Source: Spirochaetia bacterium
Lineage (GTDB): Bacteria; Spirochaetota; Spirochaetia; CADAEX01
Assembly: GCA_963662265.2 (NCBI GenBank)
Contig: CAXXHA010000013.1
Span: 1 to 64,000 of the forward strand
DNA: 64,000 nucleotides
Reading direction: 5' to 3'
A model generated the notes under the pieces. The model was not told the DNA's origin and did no database searches. It saw nothing but the letters and a program-made list of their open reading frames with translations. This document shows, one piece after another, positions 40,108-58,793 of this stretch. Made by a program: the position numbers and the translations under genes. Position 1 is the stretch's first letter. Each line of letters opens with the position of its first letter.

Positions 40108-41519
40108 ATGGCTGCAGTACTTGTTATAGATGATGAAAAAAGTATACAGAAAAGTTTTACACAGTTGTTCAGCAACAAGTTTGAAGTACTCAATGCATAC
40201 AACGGCAAGGAGGGGCTTGAAATCCTGGACAGTCATGAGGTTGATCTTGTTTTTCTTGATTACATGATGCCTGGAGAAGATGGTCTTGAAATACTGGAAA
40301 AAATCAAGAAAAAGGAACCGGGGATTCCTGTGGTCATGATTACTGCCCATGGAAGTTTTGAGACAATAATAAAGTCTACATCACTGGGGGCTTACGATTA
40401 TCTGGAAAAACCGCTTGATATAGATAAGATTGAAATACTGGCGAAAAGAGCTGTTGAATCGAGGAAAATCTGTAAATATGTAAACACAATACGGGCTGAA
40501 AATATAAAAAACTATAACCTCAAGATGATTGTAGGTAATTCAGAGCCTATGCAGAATGTTTTTAAGGCGATCGGTAGGCTTGTTAATAATGATGTTTCTG
40601 TCCTTGTTACAGGCGAGAGCGGTACAGGAAAAGAACTTATTGCAAAGGCGCTTCATTACAACGGCAAACGGAAAAATGAGCCTTTTGTTGCTGTTAACTG
40701 TTCAGGCCTTACTGAGACACTTCTTGATAATGAACTCTTCGGACATGAGCCCCAGGCTTTTACCGGCGCTGTAACAATGAAGAGCGGTAAATTTGAAGCT
40801 GCAGGCGAGGGCACAATTTTTCTTGATGAAATCGGAGACATGCCGCTTAATATCCAGACAAAGCTTCTCCGTGTTCTTCAGGAAAAGGGAATTTCAGAGG
40901 CTTGGAGGCCTGAAGACAATAAAGCTCCGTGCAAGAGTGATTGCAGCGACAAACAGAAATCTTTCGGAAGAGGTTGAAAAAGGGAATTTCAGAGAGGACC
41001 TTTTTTACAGGATCAGTGTTGCTCCCCTGAGACTCCCCCCGTTAAGAGAGCGGAAAGGCGATATCTCCGCTGCTTGTTGATTTTTTTCTGAACAAGGCAT
41101 CAGGCAAAATAGGAAAACAGGTTACCCAGGTTTCAGAAAATCTTATGAAAAACCTCATGGAACACAGCTGGCCCGGTAATGTTCGTGAACTTGAAAACCT
41201 TATCACAAGCTTCTGCATTAATGCCCAGGGAGAGGTTCTTACAAGTTCAGATTTCCCCACAGTTGATATCCGTGAAAGGGAAACAGACCCAGATAAAAAT
41301 GCGGATAAGGGCGATCTCATGGCCAGTGTAATTGACCAGTATTTTGAAAACAGTGATGAGAATGAAAATCTTCTCCCATCTCTCTATGAGGAAATGGAAA
41401 GAAAAATGATTGAGAAAGCTGCTGTGAAATTCAACAATAATAAATCACTCATGGCCAAATATCTGGGAATAAGCCGGGTTACTCTGCAGAAAAAAATGAG
41501 TTCAGGTCCGCAGGAATAA
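40108..41519 (+). pseudogene. Sigma-54-dependent response regulator (NtrC/AtoC family), two +1 frameshifts (may be sequencing error)
   Basis: [41 protein letters not shown] and Fis-HTH across three frames; extra G near 40888 and extra T near 41066. Confidence 0.85.
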
Positions 41520-50718: not shown

Positions 50719-51618
50719 TCATAATAAAACAGAAATTACAAAAACTGCTGAATAAATAAAAACAAACTCAAGAAACAGATCAGAAATAATATTCATTGAG
50801 AACCCCTTTGTTTCTGCGTTCAGTCCTTTTTTAAAGAGTTTTGTCAGTTTTTTTATTGCCAGAAAAAGATAAACAGGTATGCCGAAAAGCTGGTAAGCTG
50901 TGATATAACCCATGATGACCGCATATATGACTGAAGCTGCAGCAGCAAGTGATTCGAAGATGATAATGTACCTGGAAAATGTTTCACCGGAAATTATTGA
51001 AAGTGTTTTTCTTCCCGCTTCCCTGTCTCCTGTCATGTCGCATGTATTGTTTACTGTAAGAATCTGTGCAACTGTGAAAAACAGGGGAAGTGATGCAGTA
51101 AATGAAGAAGCTGTGAATGTGCCTGTCTGTACAAAGCAGACAAGCATAAAAAGAACTGTTCCCAGAAATCCCCCTGCTGCGATTTCTCCGAAAGGGGTGA
51201 ATGATATGGGTCTCGGCCCTGCTGTATAGAAGAAGCCGACTGCCATGGAAAAAGCTCCTAGCGGGATAAGCACAAGCCCCTTCCAGAACGCAAGAACAGT
51301 TCCCGTTACAGCTGCAAGAAAAAAAAGTGAAAGAGCTGTAATAAGAGCATTTCCCGGGTCGACATTTTCATGGATAAGTACTTTATCTTTTTCCATGTTG
51401 TGTTTTTTATTGTCAACACCTTTAAGATAATCGAAATATGTATTGAATGCAGTTGTTCCCATATCAATGCAGAGAACAGCAGCCAGCATAAGAAGGGCGG
51501 CTCCTGTATTGAATGTTATTCCGATTGAATACATATAAGCTGTTGCAGCTGCATAGGTTCCTATACTTACTATTTTTGTCCTGATTTCTATTATTGAATA
51601 AAACTGTTTCAGATTCAT
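50719..51618 (-). CDS. menA: 1,4-dihydroxy-2-naphthoate prenyltransferase (MenA/DmkA-like)
   Basis: FNTYFDYLKGVD, YTAGPRPIS, NNTCDMTGDREAGRKTL. Confidence 0.85.
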   Translation of the reverse strand: MNLKQFYSIIEIRTKIVSIGTYAAATAYMYSIGITFNTGAALLMLAAVLCIDMGTTAFNTYFDYLKGVDNKKHNMEKDKVLIHENVDPGNALITALSLFFLAAVTGTVLAFWKGLVLIPLGAFSMAVGFFYTAGPRPISFTPFGEIAAGGFLGTVLFMLVCFVQTGTFTASSFTASLPLFFTVAQILTVNNTCDMTGDREAGRKTLSIISGETFSRYIIIFESLAAAASVIYAVIMGYITAYQLFGIPVYLFLAIKKLTKLFKKGLNAETKGFSMNIISDLFLEFVFIYSAVFVISVLL

Positions 51619-51686: not shown

Positions 51687-52403
51687 TTATCTTTTTACAG
51701 CATCAAGGTCGCCTGATATGGTCAGAATATTTCCTTTCAGTTCTGCCTTCAGAGTACCTTTCCAGTAATACATTGATTCAGGAGAAGCCCCGTCCTTGAA
51801 TATTTTACCTGTTTTTTTACCGCTTCCGGGAGCAACTTCTTTTCCTCCCGGTATAGAAGAATTCCAGACCTTTTTCCAGTCAACTTTATCTGCCATACCG
51901 TTTGAAGAGAAGTCTTTTGAAATAACCTGAGGTTTCCCTCTTGGAATGAATCCTATTGCTCTCTTTTCAAATGATCCGTCAGGCAGTGAGATGTTGCCGT
52001 TTCTATCTGTAATAATTTTATAAGCTGTCCCCCTGTGTGTATACTGTATTGTTATTACACCGTTTACATTTTTTGCATTAAGATTGTCGATTTTTGCCTG
52101 TTCAGAACCTGCAACACCGAAAAGAAAAAGTCCCCTCAATCCATCTGCAAGGGCATTTTTCCCTTTTACATCGTATCGATACGGCTGAAACATTTCTGTT
52201 GATTTTTTTATTGAAGCACCCGAGACAGCGTCATAGTGGTCTTTATCAGCTGCCATGTATCTTATAGGTCCTTTAAATGAAAAGTAACTTGTTTTTGTCT
52301 TGCCTGAAACATCTACCTGGTAATCTATTGAAAGATCAGCAGCAAAAACAAATCCTCCGAGCAGAAACATTAATAATACTGTTATCAGAATTTTATTTTT
52401 CAC
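51687..52403 (-). CDS. Secreted protein with ApbE flavinylation motif (DAVSGAS)
   Basis: GTG 52403 after GGAGG; signal peptide ending VFA; DAVSGAS encoded at 52212-52232. Confidence 0.7.
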   Translation of the reverse strand: MKNKILITVLLMFLLGGFVFAADLSIDYQVDVSGKTKTSYFSFKGPIRYMAADKDHYDAVSGASIKKSTEMFQPYRYDVKGKNALADGLRGLFLFGVAGSEQAKIDNLNAKNVNGVITIQYTHRGTAYKIITDRNGNISLPDGSFEKRAIGFIPRGKPQVISKDFSSNGMADKVDWKKVWNSSIPGGKEVAPGSGKKTGKIFKDGASPESMYYWKGTLKAELKGNILTISGDLDAVKR

Positions 52404-52621
52404 TTCTACAACCTCCATGATTTTTTGATTGTTGATAATAAAATTATTCAACGATTATTGATATATGTCAATTATTTTCCTATTATTTCTATAGGAATAA
52501 GGCTTAAATGTGTTAAATATACTGGACTTTTCATCCTTCGCATTTGATAATTATTATATTGAACTGTATCAGTTTAAAAATAATTGAATATTATGAAAAA
52601 GAAATTATATATGGAGGCTGT

Positions 52622-54817
52622 ATGGATACCAGGAAAATTGTAATACTTGGCGGCGGTTATGCCGGTATAGAGGCTGCCGGGAAACTATATAAACACTTCA
52701 GGAAAGACAAATCTGTTGAAATAACTGTAATTGACAGGAATACATATCATACACTCATGACAGAGCTGCATGAAGTTGCCGGTTCCAGGGTAGTCCCTGA
52801 TTCTGTGATGATAAGCTACGAAAGAATTTTTTCCGGAACAGATATAAAGCTTGTCAGTGATAATATAATTGGAATTGATTATGAGAAAAAGATACTTGTT
52901 TCTGATTTGAATCGTTATGAATATGATTATCTGATATTGGGAACAGGGGGTGCTCCTGAATTTTTTGATCTTCCCGGAATACAGGAAAATTCATTTTCTC
53001 TCTGGTCTCTTGAGGATGCAGTCAAAATCAGGGAGCATATTGAGGAGCAGTTCCGTCTTGCCGCAAAAGAACCTGATAAAGACAAAAGGGAAAAGATGCT
53101 GACATTCACGGTTGCAGGAGCAGGGTTTACAGGTATAGAGCTGATAGGCGAGATTGCAGAAAGAAAAGATATACTGTGCAGGAGATATCATATAGATGCA
53201 AGTTGTGTAAACCTGATTGTGATTGAAGCACTTGATTCGATTCTGCCGATTATTGAAGAAAATCTGAGAGCAAAAGCGTTTAAGTATATGAGAAAAAAGG
53301 GAATTCAGGTATTTCTCGGGAAAAGAATACTTGAAGTTTCAGATGGAAGCGTTGTTCTTGATGATGGGACAGAAATTGATGCAGGTACTTTTGTCTGGAC
53401 CTGTGGTATTCATGGATCTGAATTTACTTCCCGCATTGATATAGAAAAAGGGAGCGAAGCATTCGGTAAATGCAGCATTGCATCGGCAAGCGGAATACAC
53501 GGTATGAGCGGAAGCAGGTTTGAAGTAGATGAGATCAGGTTAGTGGCAAAGAGGGGGAGGATACTTGTCAATAAATTCATGCAGACTCCTGATCATCCTG
53601 ATATCTATGCTGTCGGTGATAATATGTGGTTTATTGAAGATGAAAAGCCCCTTCCCCAGATTGTTGAGACAGCACTTCAGACAGGTAAAACAGCAGCTGA
53701 AAATATAATTGCAGATATAAAAGGTCTGGAAAAGAAAGCCTTTAAATCAAACTATCACGGGTTCATGGTCTCAATAGGGAGCAGATATGCTGTTTCAAAT
53801 GCAGGAGGGCTGAAGCTTTCCGGTTTTTTTGCGATGGCTATGAAGCATATTGTCAATCTTCATTATCTTTTCGGTCTTGCCGGCCTGAATACTGTATGGG
53901 GGTACCTGAAACATGAGTTTTTCGATATGAAAGACAGGCGGACTTTTATCGGTGAACACCTTTCATGGAAGATTCAGGGTTGGTGGGGAGTTCCTCTCCG
54001 GCTCTGGCTGGGTATTATGTGGCTTGCCGAAGGTGCCAATAAGATTGGTGAGGGATGGCTCTCTTTTTCTTCAGGCTCAAAATCCGGATGGATGTTCAGC
54101 CCGGGAGTAATACAGAGAGGTGTTGAAGTTGCACCTGATGCAGTAGGTTCAGCGACAGGAGCAGCGGAAGGAGCGGCTGAGTATGCTGCAGATGTGGTAA
54201 CAGCAGCGACAGGAGCAGCGGAAGGAGCGGCTGAATATGCGGCAGATGCGGTAACCGCAGCGACAGGAGCAGCGGAAGGAGCGGCTGAATATGCGGCAGA
54301 TGTGGTAACCGCAGCGACAGGAGCAGCAGAAGGTGCTGTTGAAATAGCAGCAGATCATATTGCCTGGGCATTCGGTAAAATATGGGATACAGGCAAATCA
54401 ATTATTCCGTATGATTCCTTTATTGTTACATGGTTCAGGGAAACTTTCATGGATAACATGATGGCTTATATCAGTTATCCCCTGTTTCAGTTAATGATAG
54501 TTTCAGTTGAAATTGCTATAGGGCTTGCCCTTCTGGGCGGACTTTTTACATGGCTTGTAGCTGCAGGATCTATCGCAATGTGCGGTGTATTTATACTTTC
54601 CGGAATGTTCAGCTGGGATCAGCTCTGGTTTGTATTTGGAGCTTTTCTCCTTCTCGGCGGTGCAGGCAGGAGTTTCGGGTTTGATCACTGGGTAATGCCT
54701 TTTATTAAAAGACTGTGGAATGCTTCATCAATAGCCAGGAAAACTCATCTCTATATAAATGAACCTGTCAGCAGAAAGAAGGGTAAAATAAACAAGGCTG
54801 AAGGAAAAAATAAATAA
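52622..54817 (+). CDS. ndh: Type II NADH:quinone oxidoreductase with C-terminal DoxX/TQO-like membrane domain (Ndh2/EET-like)
   Basis: GGGYAG, GAGFTGIE, YAVGD, PQIVETALQ; C-terminal LRLWLG...EIAIGLALLGG...GAGRSFGFD; ATG 52622 after GGAGG. Confidence 0.88.
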   Translation: MDTRKIVILGGGYAGIEAAGKLYKHFRKDKSVEITVIDRNTYHTLMTELHEVAGSRVVPDSVMISYERIFSGTDIKLVSDNIIGIDYEKKILVSDLNRYEYDYLILGTGGAPEFFDLPGIQENSFSLWSLEDAVKIREHIEEQFRLAAKEPDKDKREKMLTFTVAGAGFTGIELIGEIAERKDILCRRYHIDASCVNLIVIEALDSILPIIEENLRAKAFKYMRKKGIQVFLGKRILEVSDGSVVLDDGTEIDAGTFVWTCGIHGSEFTSRIDIEKGSEAFGKCSIASASGIHGMSGSRFEVDEIRLVAKRGRILVNKFMQTPDHPDIYAVGDNMWFIEDEKPLPQIVETALQTGKTAAENIIADIKGLEKKAFKSNYHGFMVSIGSRYAVSNAGGLKLSGFFAMAMKHIVNLHYLFGLAGLNTVWGYLKHEFFDMKDRRTFIGEHLSWKIQGWWGVPLRLWLGIMWLAEGANKIGEGWLSFSSGSKSGWMFSPGVIQRGVEVAPDAVGSATGAAEGAAEYAADVVTAATGAAEGAAEYAADAVTAATGAAEGAAEYAADVVTAATGAAEGAVEIAADHIAWAFGKIWDTGKSIIPYDSFIVTWFRETFMDNMMAYISYPLFQLMIVSVEIAIGLALLGGLFTWLVAAGSIAMCGVFILSGMFSWDQLWFVFGAFLLLGGAGRSFGFDHWVMPFIKRLWNASSIARKTHLYINEPVSRKKGKINKAEGKNK
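54131..54356 (+). repeat. 54-bp in-frame tandem repeat (~4 copies; 18 aa ATGAAEGAAEYAADVVTA)
   Basis: AGCGACAGGAGCAGC recurs at 54151, 54205, 54259 and 54313. Confidence 0.95.
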
Positions 54818-54834
54818 ATACAAGGACTGGATAT

Positions 54835-55800
54835 TTGGTTAACGCAGTTTTAAACAGACTACATTTGGAAAAGGATCTTGAAAAGGTAAGGGAAGTAATC
54901 CTTTCTGCTTCTGATGATTCAATTCCTGTTGTCAGGGAATGTATTGAATCAATTGTTGCTTCAGGCGGGAAAATGCTCCGCCCTTTGTTTCTGATATTAT
55001 CATCCCGGATAGGGGGTGCTGACCCTGAGAGGGTCTACCGGCTTGCTGCTGGAATTGAGCTTCTTCATATATCTTCCCTTATTCATGATGATATTATTGA
55101 TAACTCCAGTAAAAGAAGGGGAATCCCCGCAGTACACAAAGTATATGGTGTAAAAAACGGAGTACTTCTGGGCGATTATTTTTTCTCACAAAGCATATCG
55201 CTTCTGACAGAAAAAATGATGATGGAAAACAGTTCTGCCGCTGCAAAGACTGTTTCGAGGATTTGTGAGAGCGAGATACTGCAGAATATTGAGAATGCGG
55301 AAAAAGACTTCAGGTTAAGGACTTATATAAGGCATATTACCGGGAAAACTGCTGTGCTTTTTATTCTCAGTTTCCATCTGGGAGCTGTTGAGGGGGGATG
55401 CTCAGGAGAGCTGCAGTCAGTATTCAGAAAGATCGGATATAATACCGGGATTGCTTTCCAGATTATAGACGACATACTTGATTTTACAGGCAGGGAAAAC
55501 AAGGTCGGAAAACCTGTGGGAAATGATCTGAGAAACGGAATTATAACTGCGCCTGCGATTTTTGCAGTACAGGAAGATCCTTCAATGGTTAATCTGCTGA
55601 GCTCTTCCAATCTCTTTAATAAAAGCAAAATAAATAAATTTATCAGTATGACAGTAAAGAACGGAGCAATTGGAAGATCCCGAAAACTGGCTTCCTCCTA
55701 CACTGACAGGGCAATAAAAGAGATAGGTAACCTGCCTGAAGGGAATGTTAAAACTGCACTACATGAACTTGTAAGCTCCCTTCTTGTCAGGGATTATTAA
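54835..55800 (+). CDS. Polyprenyl diphosphate synthase (HepT/DmkB-like)
   Basis: GGKMLRP, HDDIIDNSSKRRG, KTA, FQIIDDILD, GKPVGNDL. Confidence 0.92.
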   Translation: MVNAVLNRLHLEKDLEKVREVILSASDDSIPVVRECIESIVASGGKMLRPLFLILSSRIGGADPERVYRLAAGIELLHISSLIHDDIIDNSSKRRGIPAVHKVYGVKNGVLLGDYFFSQSISLLTEKMMMENSSAAAKTVSRICESEILQNIENAEKDFRLRTYIRHITGKTAVLFILSFHLGAVEGGCSGELQSVFRKIGYNTGIAFQIIDDILDFTGRENKVGKPVGNDLRNGIITAPAIFAVQEDPSMVNLLSSSNLFNKSKINKFISMTVKNGAIGRSRKLASSYTDRAIKEIGNLPEGNVKTALHELVSSLLVRDY

Positions 55801-56000
55801 TTCAGGGAGACAGCTGTACAGGGTATTTCCCTCCTCTGTTTTTCTCTGAATAATTTTCAGTTTTATATACATGATCTTCAGCCAGTTTTTGTTTTTCAGT
55901 ATTTTCTGATTGATTTCAAAATTAGAAATAAGAACTGCTGGATTAATAAAAAATGAGCAGATATGTCTGTCATTTAATATTAAAAAGAAAGGAAAGATTT

Positions 56001-56654
56001 ATGAATATTTCAGATATAATCAATAAAAGGCATGCTGTTAAAAGTTTTGATCCTGACAGGACGATAGAGCTTGATAAAATAAAGCAGCTTGAAAAAATAT
56101 TAAGGCTCAGCCCTTCATCAGTAAATCTTCAGCCCTGGCATTATATTATTGCAGGTACACAAGAGGGAAAGAAGCTGATAGCGGAATCAGCAACAGGCCA
56201 GTTCGCATATAACAGGGATAAAATACTCAACGCTTCTCTTGTTGTTGTCTTCTGTTCAAAGAAATCTCTTGATGATGAATATCTTAAAGGATTGATTGAG
56301 CAGGAGGATAAGGACGGCAGGTTTAAAGATGACAGGGCAAGGGAAGTTCAGTATGGTGTTAAATCCGGTTTTTCAGATCTGCACCGTAAAGAATTCCATG
56401 ACCCGGAAGAGTGGATGAAGCGCCAGGTTTATCTTTCTGCCGGTTTTTTTCTCATGGGTGCAGCTTCCCTTGATATTGATACCTGTCCCATGGAGGGATT
56501 TGACAGCAGAAAGCTGGATAAGCTTCTCAGTTTAAATAAAAGGGGATTTGAATCTTCTGTTATTGTTGCTGCAGGATACAGAAGCAGCGATGATTTTAAC
56601 GCATCTCTGCCTAAATCCAGACTGCCTTCAGATTCAGTTATAACAAGGATCTGA
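56001..56654 (+). CDS. nfsB: Oxygen-insensitive NAD(P)H nitroreductase (NfsB-like)
   Basis: RHAVKSFD, SPSSVNLQPWH, QVYL, CPMEGFD, DFNASLPKSRL. Confidence 0.88.
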   Translation: MNISDIINKRHAVKSFDPDRTIELDKIKQLEKILRLSPSSVNLQPWHYIIAGTQEGKKLIAESATGQFAYNRDKILNASLVVVFCSKKSLDDEYLKGLIEQEDKDGRFKDDRAREVQYGVKSGFSDLHRKEFHDPEEWMKRQVYLSAGFFLMGAASLDIDTCPMEGFDSRKLDKLLSLNKRGFESSVIVAAGYRSSDDFNASLPKSRLPSDSVITRI

Positions 56655-56692
56655 AAAGCCGCTTTTACGGGAGACTTAAACAATACAATCTG

Positions 56693-57361
56693 TCAGATCA
56701 GACTGTTGAGCAGTTTTTTATCTTTTATTCTGATTCCGGGATATCCAGTACCAATTGCTTCTTCAGAAGCAAGTTCTTTCAATACCCTGTTGAGATGTCT
56801 GACTGATGTTCCCAGCATGGAAGCCAGGACCTCTTTTTCCGGTAGAATAATCACATTGCTGCTGCCTGATTCAGGACGAGTCATTATATAGAGTGCAAAT
56901 CTTGATTTTACCGGAAGAATATGGCCAAGTATCAATGAGGTTGAAAAGTAAAGTTTATCGACAAGCTGCTCAATAATAAATCTCAGAAAAACAGGATCTT
57001 CAAGACCGTGTTTCCTTACTTTATCCATTGGTATACCAAGAAGAACAGATGGTGCTGTTGTCATTACTGCAGTGGAGGCAGGATTGTTATTCAATATTTC
57101 CACATCCCCGAGTGCAGTAAGCGGTTTTGAGATTGCGACAACAGCCAGGGTCCCGTTTGCATTGTAATGAGCACATCTCAGTTCCCCTTCCACAAGGAGG
57201 TAGAACATTGGAATTTCTTCCTGCTCCGGGAAGATTGTTTTATAGGATTCAAATCTGTACATTTTCATGTTTTCAATGAGAACTGAGTTGAGAATATTTT
57301 TCAGACTGTATTTATCTGTATAATAATCAATTGTTTTGCCGGTGGTTTTCTCTTTTTCCAA
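56693..57361 (-). CDS. Crp/Fnr family transcriptional regulator (YeiL-like)
   Basis: cNMP domain (LGDVE) plus HTH LASMLGTSVRHLNRVL. Confidence 0.88.
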   Translation of the reverse strand: MEKEKTTGKTIDYYTDKYSLKNILNSVLIENMKMYRFESYKTIFPEQEEIPMFYLLVEGELRCAHYNANGTLAVVAISKPLTALGDVEILNNNPASTAVMTTAPSVLLGIPMDKVRKHGLEDPVFLRFIIEQLVDKLYFSTSLILGHILPVKSRFALYIMTRPESGSSNVIILPEKEVLASMLGTSVRHLNRVLKELASEEAIGTGYPGIRIKDKKLLNSLI

Positions 57362-57477
57362 TTTAATATTCTTCCCTTAAATATCTCCGGATTGTTCCGG
57401 TAGTTAAATATTACTGTTTCCCGCAGTTTTTACCTGTTCTGCTTTTTTCCACTATATCATTATAACAGAAGTCATAA

Positions 57478-57491
57478 AGGACAAATGTCCT
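57478..57491. promoter_or_regulatory. Palindromic operator, probably for the adjacent Crp/Fnr regulator
   Basis: AGGACA-AA-TGTCCT in the divergent intergenic region. Confidence 0.45.
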
Positions 57492-57545
57492 GTATAAAGA
57501 AACGAGCTCCCTGTATATTCAAATTATAACTGCAGCAGGAGGCGG

Positions 57546-57869
57546 TTGGTAATGTTTAGAAAAATACCATTATTTATATCTTTTATTATGGTGGAAAAGT
57601 CAGAGTCTGCGGAATCAGGTAATAAACTAGATAATAAACTAGATAATAAACTAGATAATAAACTAGATAATAAACTAGATAATAAACTAGATAATAAACT
57701 AGATAATAAACTAGATAATAAACTAGATAATAAACTAGATAATAAACTAGATAATCCTGCAGAACTGGACAGCGGAAAAAAATACTCCCATTATTCAGAT
57801 ATTGCAGAGGGAAATGCCCTGAATGATGCGGAACGGGAAGCAAAGTCATTGCTGTACAGGATGGTTTGA
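57546..57869 (+). CDS. Small hypothetical protein with (NKLD)11 repeat
   Basis: AGGAGG RBS; the repeat keeps frame; downstream hairpin at 57876-57900. Confidence 0.45.
   Translation: MVMFRKIPLFISFIMVEKSESAESGNKLDNKLDNKLDNKLDNKLDNKLDNKLDNKLDNKLDNKLDNKLDNPAELDSGKKYSHYSDIAEGNALNDAEREAKSLLYRMV
57621..57755 (+). repeat. 12-bp tandem repeat (AATAAACTAGAT) x11
   Basis: Perfect copies 57621-57752. Confidence 0.97.
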
Positions 57870-57929
57870 TTTAAAAACAGCTGCCAGTTTTCAGGCAGCT
57901 GTGTGGTTTCTTTATTTAATATTAAAGAG

Positions 57930-58793
57930 TTATATTTTAATTCTGTTAATATTAATGCCTTCAGACTGGACTGCTCTTGAATATTTTATTCCCGGTTTTC
58001 CGAAGACAAGAACACCCCCTATAATGTGGTCTTCCGGAATTCCCAGCTTTTTCCTGAGGTAGGGAGCTATTTCTGTCAGTACCCATTTGACCATTCCGTT
58101 CCAGAGGGTTGCAATTCCTGATGCATTTGCTGCCAGTTCAAAGTAGCTCAGGGATATTATGCAGTCTTCCATGGCAGTTGTTGCTGATTCAGGGGCAGAT
58201 GCAATAACCATATGCGGCGCTCCGCGGAAAAGTACATCGATATTCTTTTTCAGCCACAGAACCTGGAATTTTGCAAGAAGAGGAAGGTTCCTGTTTTTAT
58301 TACCCCTGTCTGCTTCATCCCTGATTGCAGAATAGAAAAGTTCCTTTAATTTGTGGAAGTCCTCTTTGTTGTCAGACACGGAAAGCAGGACACTGTTGTC
58401 ATTGTGACCTGTCGGTGCATAGGAGGCAGATTCCAGAAGAGTACTGATCTGCTCATCTGTGAGATTTTCATCTTTGTATTTTCGTACAGATCTTCTGGTT
58501 TTTATCATCCTGTTCAGAAGATCCGGGTCAGGTAGTCTGTTTTCTACCGGCAGGCTTTCATCCGGATTCTTTCCGAATATGGATATAGCCCCTTCAGGGC
58601 AGACAGCCAGGCAGTGCTGGCACCTTATGCAGTGGTTTTCCTTACCATCTTTGAGGTAAGGGTATTCCCCCATTACAATTATCATTGACGGGCAGTCCTG
58701 GGCGCAGAGCCCGCATCCTGTGCATTTTTCTTCATTAATTTCAAAATCAAGCATGAAGAATATGATAATGTTTTTATTTTTCTTTTCAAGCAT
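57930..58793 (-). CDS. Nitroreductase with N-terminal 2x[4Fe-4S] ferredoxin domain
   Basis: CTGCGLCAQDCP, CIRCQHCLAVCP, RRSVRKY, APTGHN; alternative start 58754. Confidence 0.92.
   Translation of the reverse strand: MLEKKNKNIIIFFMLDFEINEEKCTGCGLCAQDCPSMIIVMGEYPYLKDGKENHCIRCQHCLAVCPEGAISIFGKNPDESLPVENRLPDPDLLNRMIKTRRSVRKYKDENLTDEQISTLLESASYAPTGHNDNSVLLSVSDNKEDFHKLKELFYSAIRDEADRGNKNRNLPLLAKFQVLWLKKNIDVLFRGAPHMVIASAPESATTAMEDCIISLSYFELAANASGIATLWNGMVKWVLTEIAPYLRKKLGIPEDHIIGGVLVFGKPGIKYSRAVQSEGININRIKI

Follow-up and report, generated by a model that had tools for sequence, protein, structure and literature searches.

Flavinylation-like motifs built from a 54-bp repeat in the predicted periplasmic loop of a spirochaete EET-type Ndh2

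We analysed a stretch of 64,000 nucleotides from a Spirochaetia bacterium (assembly GCA_963662265.2, contig CAXXHA010000013.1, positions 1 to 64,000 of the forward strand; hereafter the window), in which the ndh gene (52622..54817, + strand) encodes an Ndh2 of the type associated with extracellular electron transfer (EET). The product, 731 amino acids followed by a stop codon, combines a type II NADH dehydrogenase (NDH-2) with a fused membrane domain of four helices, and a loop of this domain carries four tandem motifs resembling the site at which the flavin transferase ApbE attaches flavin mononucleotide (FMN). On balance, ApbE flavinylation of these loop motifs, with electrons passed outward, is probably the best explanation of the feature, and we propose that it represents ApbE flavinylation within the EET Ndh2 family, that is, a spirochaete form of the membrane-anchored EET Ndh2. 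Ndh may itself hand electrons outward. The architecture of the protein, the logic of its topology, the conservation of the motif with interchange of Gly and Ala, the variation in copy number and the linkage to apbE are established below.

The motif array and the architecture of Ndh

Tandem Repeats Finder detected the repeat at 54150-54355 (period 54, 3.8 copies, 92% matches, score 333), and the repeat is in frame. Its translation gives four 54-bp units of 18 amino acids each (54137..54352, + strand): DAVGSAT-GAAEGAAEYAA at 54137, DVVTAAT-GAAEGAAEYAA at 54191, DAVTAAT-GAAEGAAEYAA at 54245 and DVVTAAT-GAAEGAVEIAA at 54299. Each unit presents one flavinylation-like motif, ending in Thr512, Thr530, Thr548 and Thr566, respectively, and the common pattern is D-x-V-[T/G]-[A/S]-A-T. 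The four tandem motifs and their 54-bp unit, which a preliminary description had read from the sequence, were thereby confirmed, and the span given there (54131-54356) brackets the units. The ApbE motif is D-x-x-[S/T]-G-A-[S/T], and seven residues suffice as a tag (JBC 2025 review, PMC12052999). The description had called the motifs non-canonical through a change of Gly to Ala or Ser at position 5; this stands for all four units and is incomplete for unit 1, which deviates at two positions.

Public short-read contigs end at about 54179 and restart at about 54273, and none spans the array; since they break within the repeat, the count of four copies depends on the assembly as given. The number of units differs among near-identical relatives: there are 3 in P0002 (99% identity over the aligned part), 4 in the window and 5 in P0001 (96%). 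These differences among relatives that are 96-99% identical outside the array consist of exact 18-residue blocks. The idea that expansion or contraction of the repeat alters the number of sites is thus supported between strains.

The ndh open reading frame (ORF) covers 52544-54817 on the + strand. ATG 52622 was taken as the likely start codon, since the N-termini of the homologs read MDTRKIV (MDTRKIVILGGGYAG), and the residues of Ndh are counted from it. Pfam matched Pyr_redox_2 (1.4e-35) and Pyr_redox (6.4e-10), and phmmer matched the NDH-2 of Caldalkalibacillus thermarum (PDB 4nwz) at E 7.4e-67. An AlphaFold2 model of Ndh was built from a 73-sequence alignment, with a mean predicted local distance difference test score (pLDDT) of 78.7; Foldseek aligned it with 4nwz and 5kmp at E ~1e-37 to 1e-38 and a TM-score of 0.91-0.92 on the target. 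Residues 1-400 are a type II NADH dehydrogenase. Together with its amphipathic C-terminal helices the cytoplasmic catalytic domain, delimited by Pfam, phmmer, AlphaFold2 and Foldseek, extends over residues 1-434 (52622..53923, + strand).

From residue 453 on, hydropathy and the model indicate four helices, 453-476, 619-639, 643-659 and 665-678. The first is transmembrane segment 1 (TM1; 53978..54049, + strand), preceded by a K/R-rich stretch (DMKDRRTF...). The other three, TM2-TM4, make up a DoxD/DoxX-like domain (residues 619-680; 54476..54661, + strand), and a K/R-rich, cytoplasmic C-terminal tail follows (residues 681-731; 54662..54814, + strand). The DoxX match of Ndh at 642-685 is weak and below the Pfam cut-off (E 0.002, 19.2 bits against 23.6); for many Ndh homologs PF07681 (DoxX/DoxD) or PF04173 is found precomputed.

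The array lies in the loop between TM1 and TM2 (residues 477-618; 54050..54475, + strand). This acidic loop of 142 residues contains 19 Asp and Glu against 5 Lys and Arg, Ala makes up 33% of it, and pLDDT falls below 50 over residues 504-586, so that its centre is predicted to be disordered. The flanks are rich in basic residues, with 4 Lys and Arg in the 18 residues ahead of TM1 and 12 in the 51-residue C-terminal tail. The NADH-binding domain must be cytoplasmic. Since a single helix stands between this domain and the loop, the loop should lie outside the cytoplasm. The predicted topology is thus N-in and C-in with four helices and the loop in the periplasm; the outward position ascribed to the loop in the preliminary description agrees with this prediction, which draws on positive-inside charge counts and on the domain logic.

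Conservation of the motif in spirochaetes and Clostridia

A search with the C-terminal part of Ndh gave 551 proteins at E <= 0.001 among 8000 candidates scored. The best 120 of these 551 matches were analysed; they are NDH-2 proteins with transmembrane segments, and every named one is labelled as a spirochaete. Species of Marispirochaeta and Sediminispirochaeta are represented in the homologs. The loop could be extracted in 116 of 121 sequences, which gave 107 unique loops, and 200 composition-preserving shuffles of the loops served as a control. The core [ST]AA[ST] was observed 326 times against 35.3 +/- 5.8 in the shuffled loops (maximum 50), and at least one [DE]..[ST][GAS]A[ST] was present in 97 of the 107 loops against a shuffled mean of 4.7 (maximum 12), these statistics being inflated by tandem duplication inside the proteins. 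At least one [ST]AA[ST] occurs in 99/107 loops, with 0 to 9 copies per loop. A regular expression anchored on Asp alone finds no match in 43 of the 120 proteins; it undercounts, since many sites begin with Glu or Ala. The expectation that orthologs keep a motif of the Dxx[ST]xAT type at the same position was thus borne out in these 97 loops, and in L028 the motif is even canonical.

Around the 326 cores, position -3 is Asp in 180 and Glu in 80 (260/326), position -2 is Ala in 264, position -1 is Val in 171 and Thr in 81 (Val, Thr or Ala in 296), and the core is followed by Gly, Ala, Asp or Glu. As far as the sequences go, this context is the profile of the ApbE motif D-[AG]-x-[ST]-G-A-[ST] apart from the Gly. 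Both forms can stand side by side: the loop of L028 mixes them in one array (DAASGAT, DAATGAT, DAASAAT, DAASGAT, DAASGAT), and that of P0023 has one DIVSGAS among three DAVSAAS. In the loops of L009 and L013 position 5 is Ser, Asn or Glu. The motifs of orthologs are spaced 7 to 26 residues apart, most often 18, 22 or 14-15, and the spacers and unit lengths diverge between lineages; in these loops the conserved element is the motif and not the repeat. A fixed helical period of 18 residues was considered as the purpose of the repeat and was rejected on account of this spacing.

The genome contains a second operon of ndh and polyprenyl synthase genes (contig C32:5887-8902), which is 66% identical and has a shorter loop with one DAVSAAS after DAIASAS.

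Homology extends to Ndh-TM proteins of Clostridia, among them Clostridium homopropionicum, Caldanaerobacter and Caloramator. A second search with the Clostridium protein as query gave 691 matches, the 120 best of which provided 114 unique loops. These Clostridia-type loops are short and non-repetitive with a single site; at least one [ST]xA[ST] stands at a fixed offset past TM1 in 111 of the 114, and the canonical [ST]GA[ST] is found in 53 (55 occurrences observed against 1.9 in shuffled loops). Judged from these comparisons, the flavinylation-like loop site is a trait of the whole family, which is single and often canonical in the Clostridia type and multiplied and Ala-substituted in the spirochaetes.

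These data bear directly on the simplest alternative, namely that the array serves as a flexible acidic linker, rich in Ala and free of modification, whose length drifts by replication slippage; the motif would then reflect a low-complexity unit that is preferred, or some local preference of structure. The composition of the loop (33% Ala) and its predicted disorder would suit such a linker, as would the freely variable copy number (0 to 9), the two orthologs that have no loop (see below) and the nearly constant absence of the canonical Gly in spirochaetes. However, composition predicts the seven-residue motif in 4.7 of 107 loops and it was observed in 97, spacers and unit lengths diverge around a motif that is kept, and in the Clostridia type a single, often canonical site is kept at a fixed offset in short loops that have no repeats. 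The linkage of apbE to ndh, described in the next section, speaks against it as well. We therefore consider an unmodified linker unlikely.

Linkage to apbE and the weighing of flavinylation

The single ApbE of the genome is encoded on contig 41 (G000:C41:15309-16145, E 7.1e-90). Its signal peptide and lipobox LISSGC, read from the sequence, predict a periplasmic lipoprotein. The surroundings of ndh were compared in 80 related loci from named genomes, which comprise 79 spirochaete-type metagenome-assembled genomes (MAGs) or isolates and one Clostridium homopropionicum. In 17 of the 80 an apbE gene lies within 10 kb of ndh, while about 1 would be expected by an estimate based on a 20-kb window and a genome of about 3 Mb. 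Pfam confirmed ApbE in 8 of the 9 linked loci scanned. The gene takes one of three positions: next to ndh on its upstream side in divergent orientation, immediately behind the synthase gene, or some 3 kb upstream. No ORF that is PplA-like or carries a canonical motif was seen in 12 of the 17 linked loci, four of these 12 being shorter than 6 kb, and FMN_bind had no match among the 66 neighbouring ORFs of the nine scanned loci.

At the level of genomes, ApbE is present in 16/16 genomes with Ndh-TM against 293/401 of the phylum sample, and in 62/63 against 236/300 scored in a 301-genome sample of Clostridia; this co-occurrence is weak evidence, because ApbE is common (73-79% of the sampled genomes) and related genomes are not independent. 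The lone exception among the Clostridia is G429, a fragmented assembly in which contig number 282 carries the gene. At least 27 of the 63 Clostridia Ndh-TM genomes have apbE within about 6 kb of the gene on the same contig.

The recurrence of apbE also helps to judge the possibility that the motif Ser/Thr bears some other modification, such as O-glycosylation or phosphorylation, or that the motif binds a ligand non-covalently, its likeness to the ApbE motif being convergent. Conserved hydroxyl residues in an exposed periplasmic loop are what such a modification would need, and the consistent departure from the canonical Gly could mean that a different enzyme reads the motif. Against this, no glycosyltransferase or kinase was found among the 66 neighbouring ORFs of the nine scanned loci, where ApbE recurs; Gly and Ala variants alternate within one array in L028, and the canonical [ST]GA[ST] dominates in the Clostridia-type homologs. 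Another modification or ligand is, in our view, improbable.

Several observations weigh against flavinylation of the loop. None of the four window units has the canonical D-x-x-[ST]-G-A-[ST], since position 5 is Ser or Ala, and DAVGSAT departs from it twice, with Gly at position 4 and Ser at position 5. Among 403 [ST]xA[ST] sites of the spirochaete loops position 5 is Ala in 349 and Gly in 18, and 8 of the 107 loops contain no [ST]AA[ST] at all. The TM1-TM2 loop is wholly missing in the orthologs L003 and L078, so that it is an insertion dispensable for the enzyme as such. The loop has no match to FMN_bind (PF04205) or any other Pfam or NCBIfam family; since it is also predicted to be disordered, a flavin on it would be solvent-exposed. 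Most characterised natural ApbE substrates keep their FMN in a folded pocket. The apbE gene of the genome is on a contig other than that of ndh, and this genome also has RnfG/NqrC-like and RnfD/NqrB-like frames with canonical motifs; because such proteins carry the motif, ApbE would be needed anyway. For five of the 17 linked loci, the presence of apbE could be due to a neighbour that is PplA-like or has a canonical motif, and the adjacency of apbE is already known for EET loci. The inflation of the shuffle statistics and the commonness of ApbE mentioned above belong here too. Finally, the Ala-for-Gly change halved flavinylation in one published test (PMC12052999).

The loop-less orthologs are located at L003:77-1831 and L078:2-1354; one belongs to a Spirochaetaceae MAG and one to a MAG labelled Sphaerochaeta.

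Other published results make flavinylation of such motifs plausible. In mutants of the motif a change of G to A or A to V still left about 50% flavinylation, and a change of D to A had minor effects (PMC12052999). Some published cases are closer to a motif in a disordered segment. ApbE modifies tags on unstructured termini and loops, and the tag-bound FMN is spectrally like free FMN (Flavin-tag, Tong et al., as given in PMC12052999 and PMC9400968), while in FMN_red proteins flavinylation takes place on an unstructured C-terminal extension (Huang et al. 2024, mSystems). The natural substrates named in the literature used here are the FMN_bind domains of NqrC, RnfG, NosR, PceC and PplA, as well as NqrB/RnfD, DUF2271 and DUF3570 (PMC12052999; eLife 2021). 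With these points on both sides, flavinylation of the Ndh loop remains the reading we favour. The term 'wire', which the preliminary description used for the array, is a stretch: since the loop is predicted to be disordered and has no flavin-binding fold, flavins moving freely on a tether are a better fit than an ordered chain.

The ndh locus, a possible electron path and known systems

A polyprenyl synthase gene (DmkB-like; 54835..55800, + strand; Pfam polyprenyl_synt 2.4e-61) begins 18 bases past the stop codon of ndh, and its homolog is directly downstream of ndh in 70 of the 80 related loci. Upstream, on the - strand, are a gene for a UbiA-family prenyltransferase (DmkA/MenA-like; 50719..51618; Pfam UbiA 1.7e-25) and, divergent from ndh, one for a secreted protein of 254 amino acids with a canonical DAVSGAS (51687..52451), the start of which is probably Met17 at about 52403. 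The remaining genes within 15 kb of ndh look unrelated. No PplA homolog was found in the window with NCBIfam.

The 254-residue neighbour is a member of an unnamed family of spirochaetes; it has no Pfam or NCBIfam match, and its 243 database matches are all 'hypothetical'. One D-x-x-[ST]-[GS]-A-S motif is retained in 115 of 120 homologs, and homologs adjoin ndh in L033 and L041 as well. Its AlphaFold2 model has a pLDDT of 92.4 and found no Foldseek match in the PDB at E <= 0.001. A PAS-like fold was considered and left unnamed, the similarity being too weak (best VIA-align Z 4.1, PAS-like rows near Z 3). The family is probably a new ApbE substrate family, and the neighbour is a candidate flavinylated electron acceptor.

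PplA homologs (NCBIfam NF041941) adjoin ndh in L016 (E 2.1e-40) and L011 (E 5e-10), neither of them reaching the curated cut-off. PplA-like lipoproteins are encoded in L011 and L014, with the motifs DTISGVS and DSISGVT, and in L016, with two DAVTGAT. Altogether PplA-like or other canonical-motif neighbours were seen in 10 of the 80 related loci, and most spirochaete loci have no PplA-like gene nearby. Such partners suggest a further alternative, in which the motifs of Ndh would be docking or decoy sites. They would bring ApbE, or a flavinylated partner that is PplA-like or is the 254-residue neighbour, to the Ndh2 complex and would not be efficiently modified themselves. The motifs do resemble the recognition motif with a weakening G-to-A change, and in some loci partner flavoproteins with canonical sites are encoded alongside. 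However, the acceptor Ser/Thr is present at all 326 cores, which is so by definition, and is always preceded by Ala, which a mere docking site would not need; furthermore most loci have no partner gene nearby, PplA-like ones being found in 10/80. We regard docking or decoy sites as very improbable.

Further observations were made around these genes. Directly downstream of the ndh-synthase pair (55953-58793) there are two genes of the nitroreductase family, one of which has a 4Fe-4S dicluster at its N-terminus, together with a Crp-type regulator; a nitroreductase gene is also near ndh in L011. Within this region a short ORF (57546-57869) consists of a 12-bp unit repeated in tandem about 12 times. 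It reads as NKLD repeats on the + strand and as YLVY-type repeats on the - strand, and it matched no family. In L009 (11477-16737), between the synthase gene and apbE, amine-oxidase-like, FAD_binding_2/Succ_DH_flav_C, Fer2_3, Fer4 and CCG-domain genes are found; the cluster looks like a fumarate-reductase-like module inserted in an EET locus. Small proteins with a NusG_II domain, each after an NYN/OST-HTH gene, are encoded just upstream of apbE-ndh in L016:7124-7549, L020:8282-8644 and L048:2673-3176. Elsewhere in the window a sigma-54 activator is split in two ORFs at 40108-41519 (+ strand), with the receiver and AAA domains at 40108-40977 and the AAA lid and a Fis-type helix-turn-helix at 41145-41519; the split might come from a frameshift, from decay to a pseudogene or from an error of assembly.

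If the favoured reading, flavinylation of the Ndh loop, is right, the following path can be drawn; both the attachment of FMN and the route of the electrons are what we infer from the sequences. The cytoplasmic NDH-2 domain would reduce (demethyl)menaquinone made with the neighbouring UbiA and polyprenyl synthase gene products, while the fused four-helix DoxD/DoxX-like domain anchors the enzyme in the membrane. The 54-bp repeat provides the TM1-TM2 loop, predicted to be periplasmic, with four variants of the ApbE recognition motif, and the periplasmic ApbE encoded on contig 41 would move FMN from flavin adenine dinucleotide (FAD) to the last Thr of at least some of them, namely Thr530, Thr548 and Thr566 and, less surely, Thr512. 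Flavins tethered to the loop could then accept electrons from quinol on the outer side of the DoxD-like domain and reduce periplasmic acceptors, for example the adjacent secreted 254-residue DAVSGAS protein. Gain or loss of whole repeat units alters the number of sites.

A bolder version of this model can be put forward tentatively, with our judgement inclined somewhat against it. Ndh2 would be the missing link of EET from the membrane to the outside, its own quinol being re-oxidised by loop-tethered FMN, and the loops would form a new, foldless class of ApbE substrates, with one site in the Clostridia type and slippage arrays of 2 to 9 in spirochaetes. How far a tethered periplasmic flavin shuttle reaches, or how much it can carry, would then depend on the number of repeats.

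To our knowledge, the model published for flavin-based EET does not specify by what route electrons exit the quinone pool to PplA. A flavin site on an outer loop of Ndh2, if true, would offer a concrete step for electrons from the quinone pool toward PplA. Should the motifs be modified, the substrates of ApbE would come to include membrane enzymes with bare motifs on disordered loops, as well as sites with Ala instead of the 'invariant' Gly. Motif searches built on FMN_bind domains would be overlooking a whole class of substrates, and the array would be a natural case of repeat slippage tuning the number of a redox cofactor. In the literature searched, which did not include subscription papers or the papers of Light et al., no report of Ndh2 flavinylation or of an Ndh2 flavinylation site was found.

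The closest known system is the flavin-based EET (FLEET) locus, whose Ndh2 was reportedly described by Light et al. in 2018 for Listeria monocytogenes and lactic acid bacteria. The genes that stand together in the window (ndh, UbiA, polyprenyl synthase and a putative secreted flavoprotein) make up, we take it, the set of the Listeria locus. An NDH-2 with a C-terminal membrane domain, encoded with UbiA and polyprenyl synthase genes, is common to both, as are PplA homologs and apbE in related loci. The two differ in that the flavinylated component of the Listeria-type system is PplA or the reductases, as far as the sources used here describe it, whereas the Ndh of the window has a loop with an array of four sites; the host of the window is moreover a spirochaete with a periplasm. 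The published survey defines an EET system as an NDH-2 with a transmembrane helix in a flavinylation-associated gene cluster (Meheust et al. 2021, PMC8238504).

With the natural ApbE substrates the motifs of the window share six of seven positions, among them the Asp at the start, the acceptor Thr and the Ala before it, as well as an extracytoplasmic location and an ApbE in the genome. They differ from them by Ala or Ser in place of Gly at position 5, by having no folded flavin pocket and by their tandem arrangement in a loop of a membrane protein. The DoxD/DoxX membrane proteins (PF04173, PF07681) share the four-helix membrane domain; in the window this domain is fused to NDH-2, is split by the long motif-bearing loop and scores below the cut-off.

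The Flavin-tag and the FMN_red extension resemble the loop of the window in presenting a short motif in an unstructured segment. According to the accounts cited above, the Flavin-tag is engineered and the FMN_red extension docks into a pre-existing flavin site, and both have the canonical Gly, unlike the window loop. Multi-flavinylated proteins (Meheust 2021; BBA Adv 2023, PMC10339131) likewise have several predicted covalent FMN sites per extracytoplasmic polypeptide and a proposed role in longer electron transfer. As described in the survey, they repeat whole FMN-binding domains, up to 13 (Meheust 2021), whereas in the window the NADH dehydrogenase itself contains the repeat, and each 18-residue unit presents no more than the bare motif.

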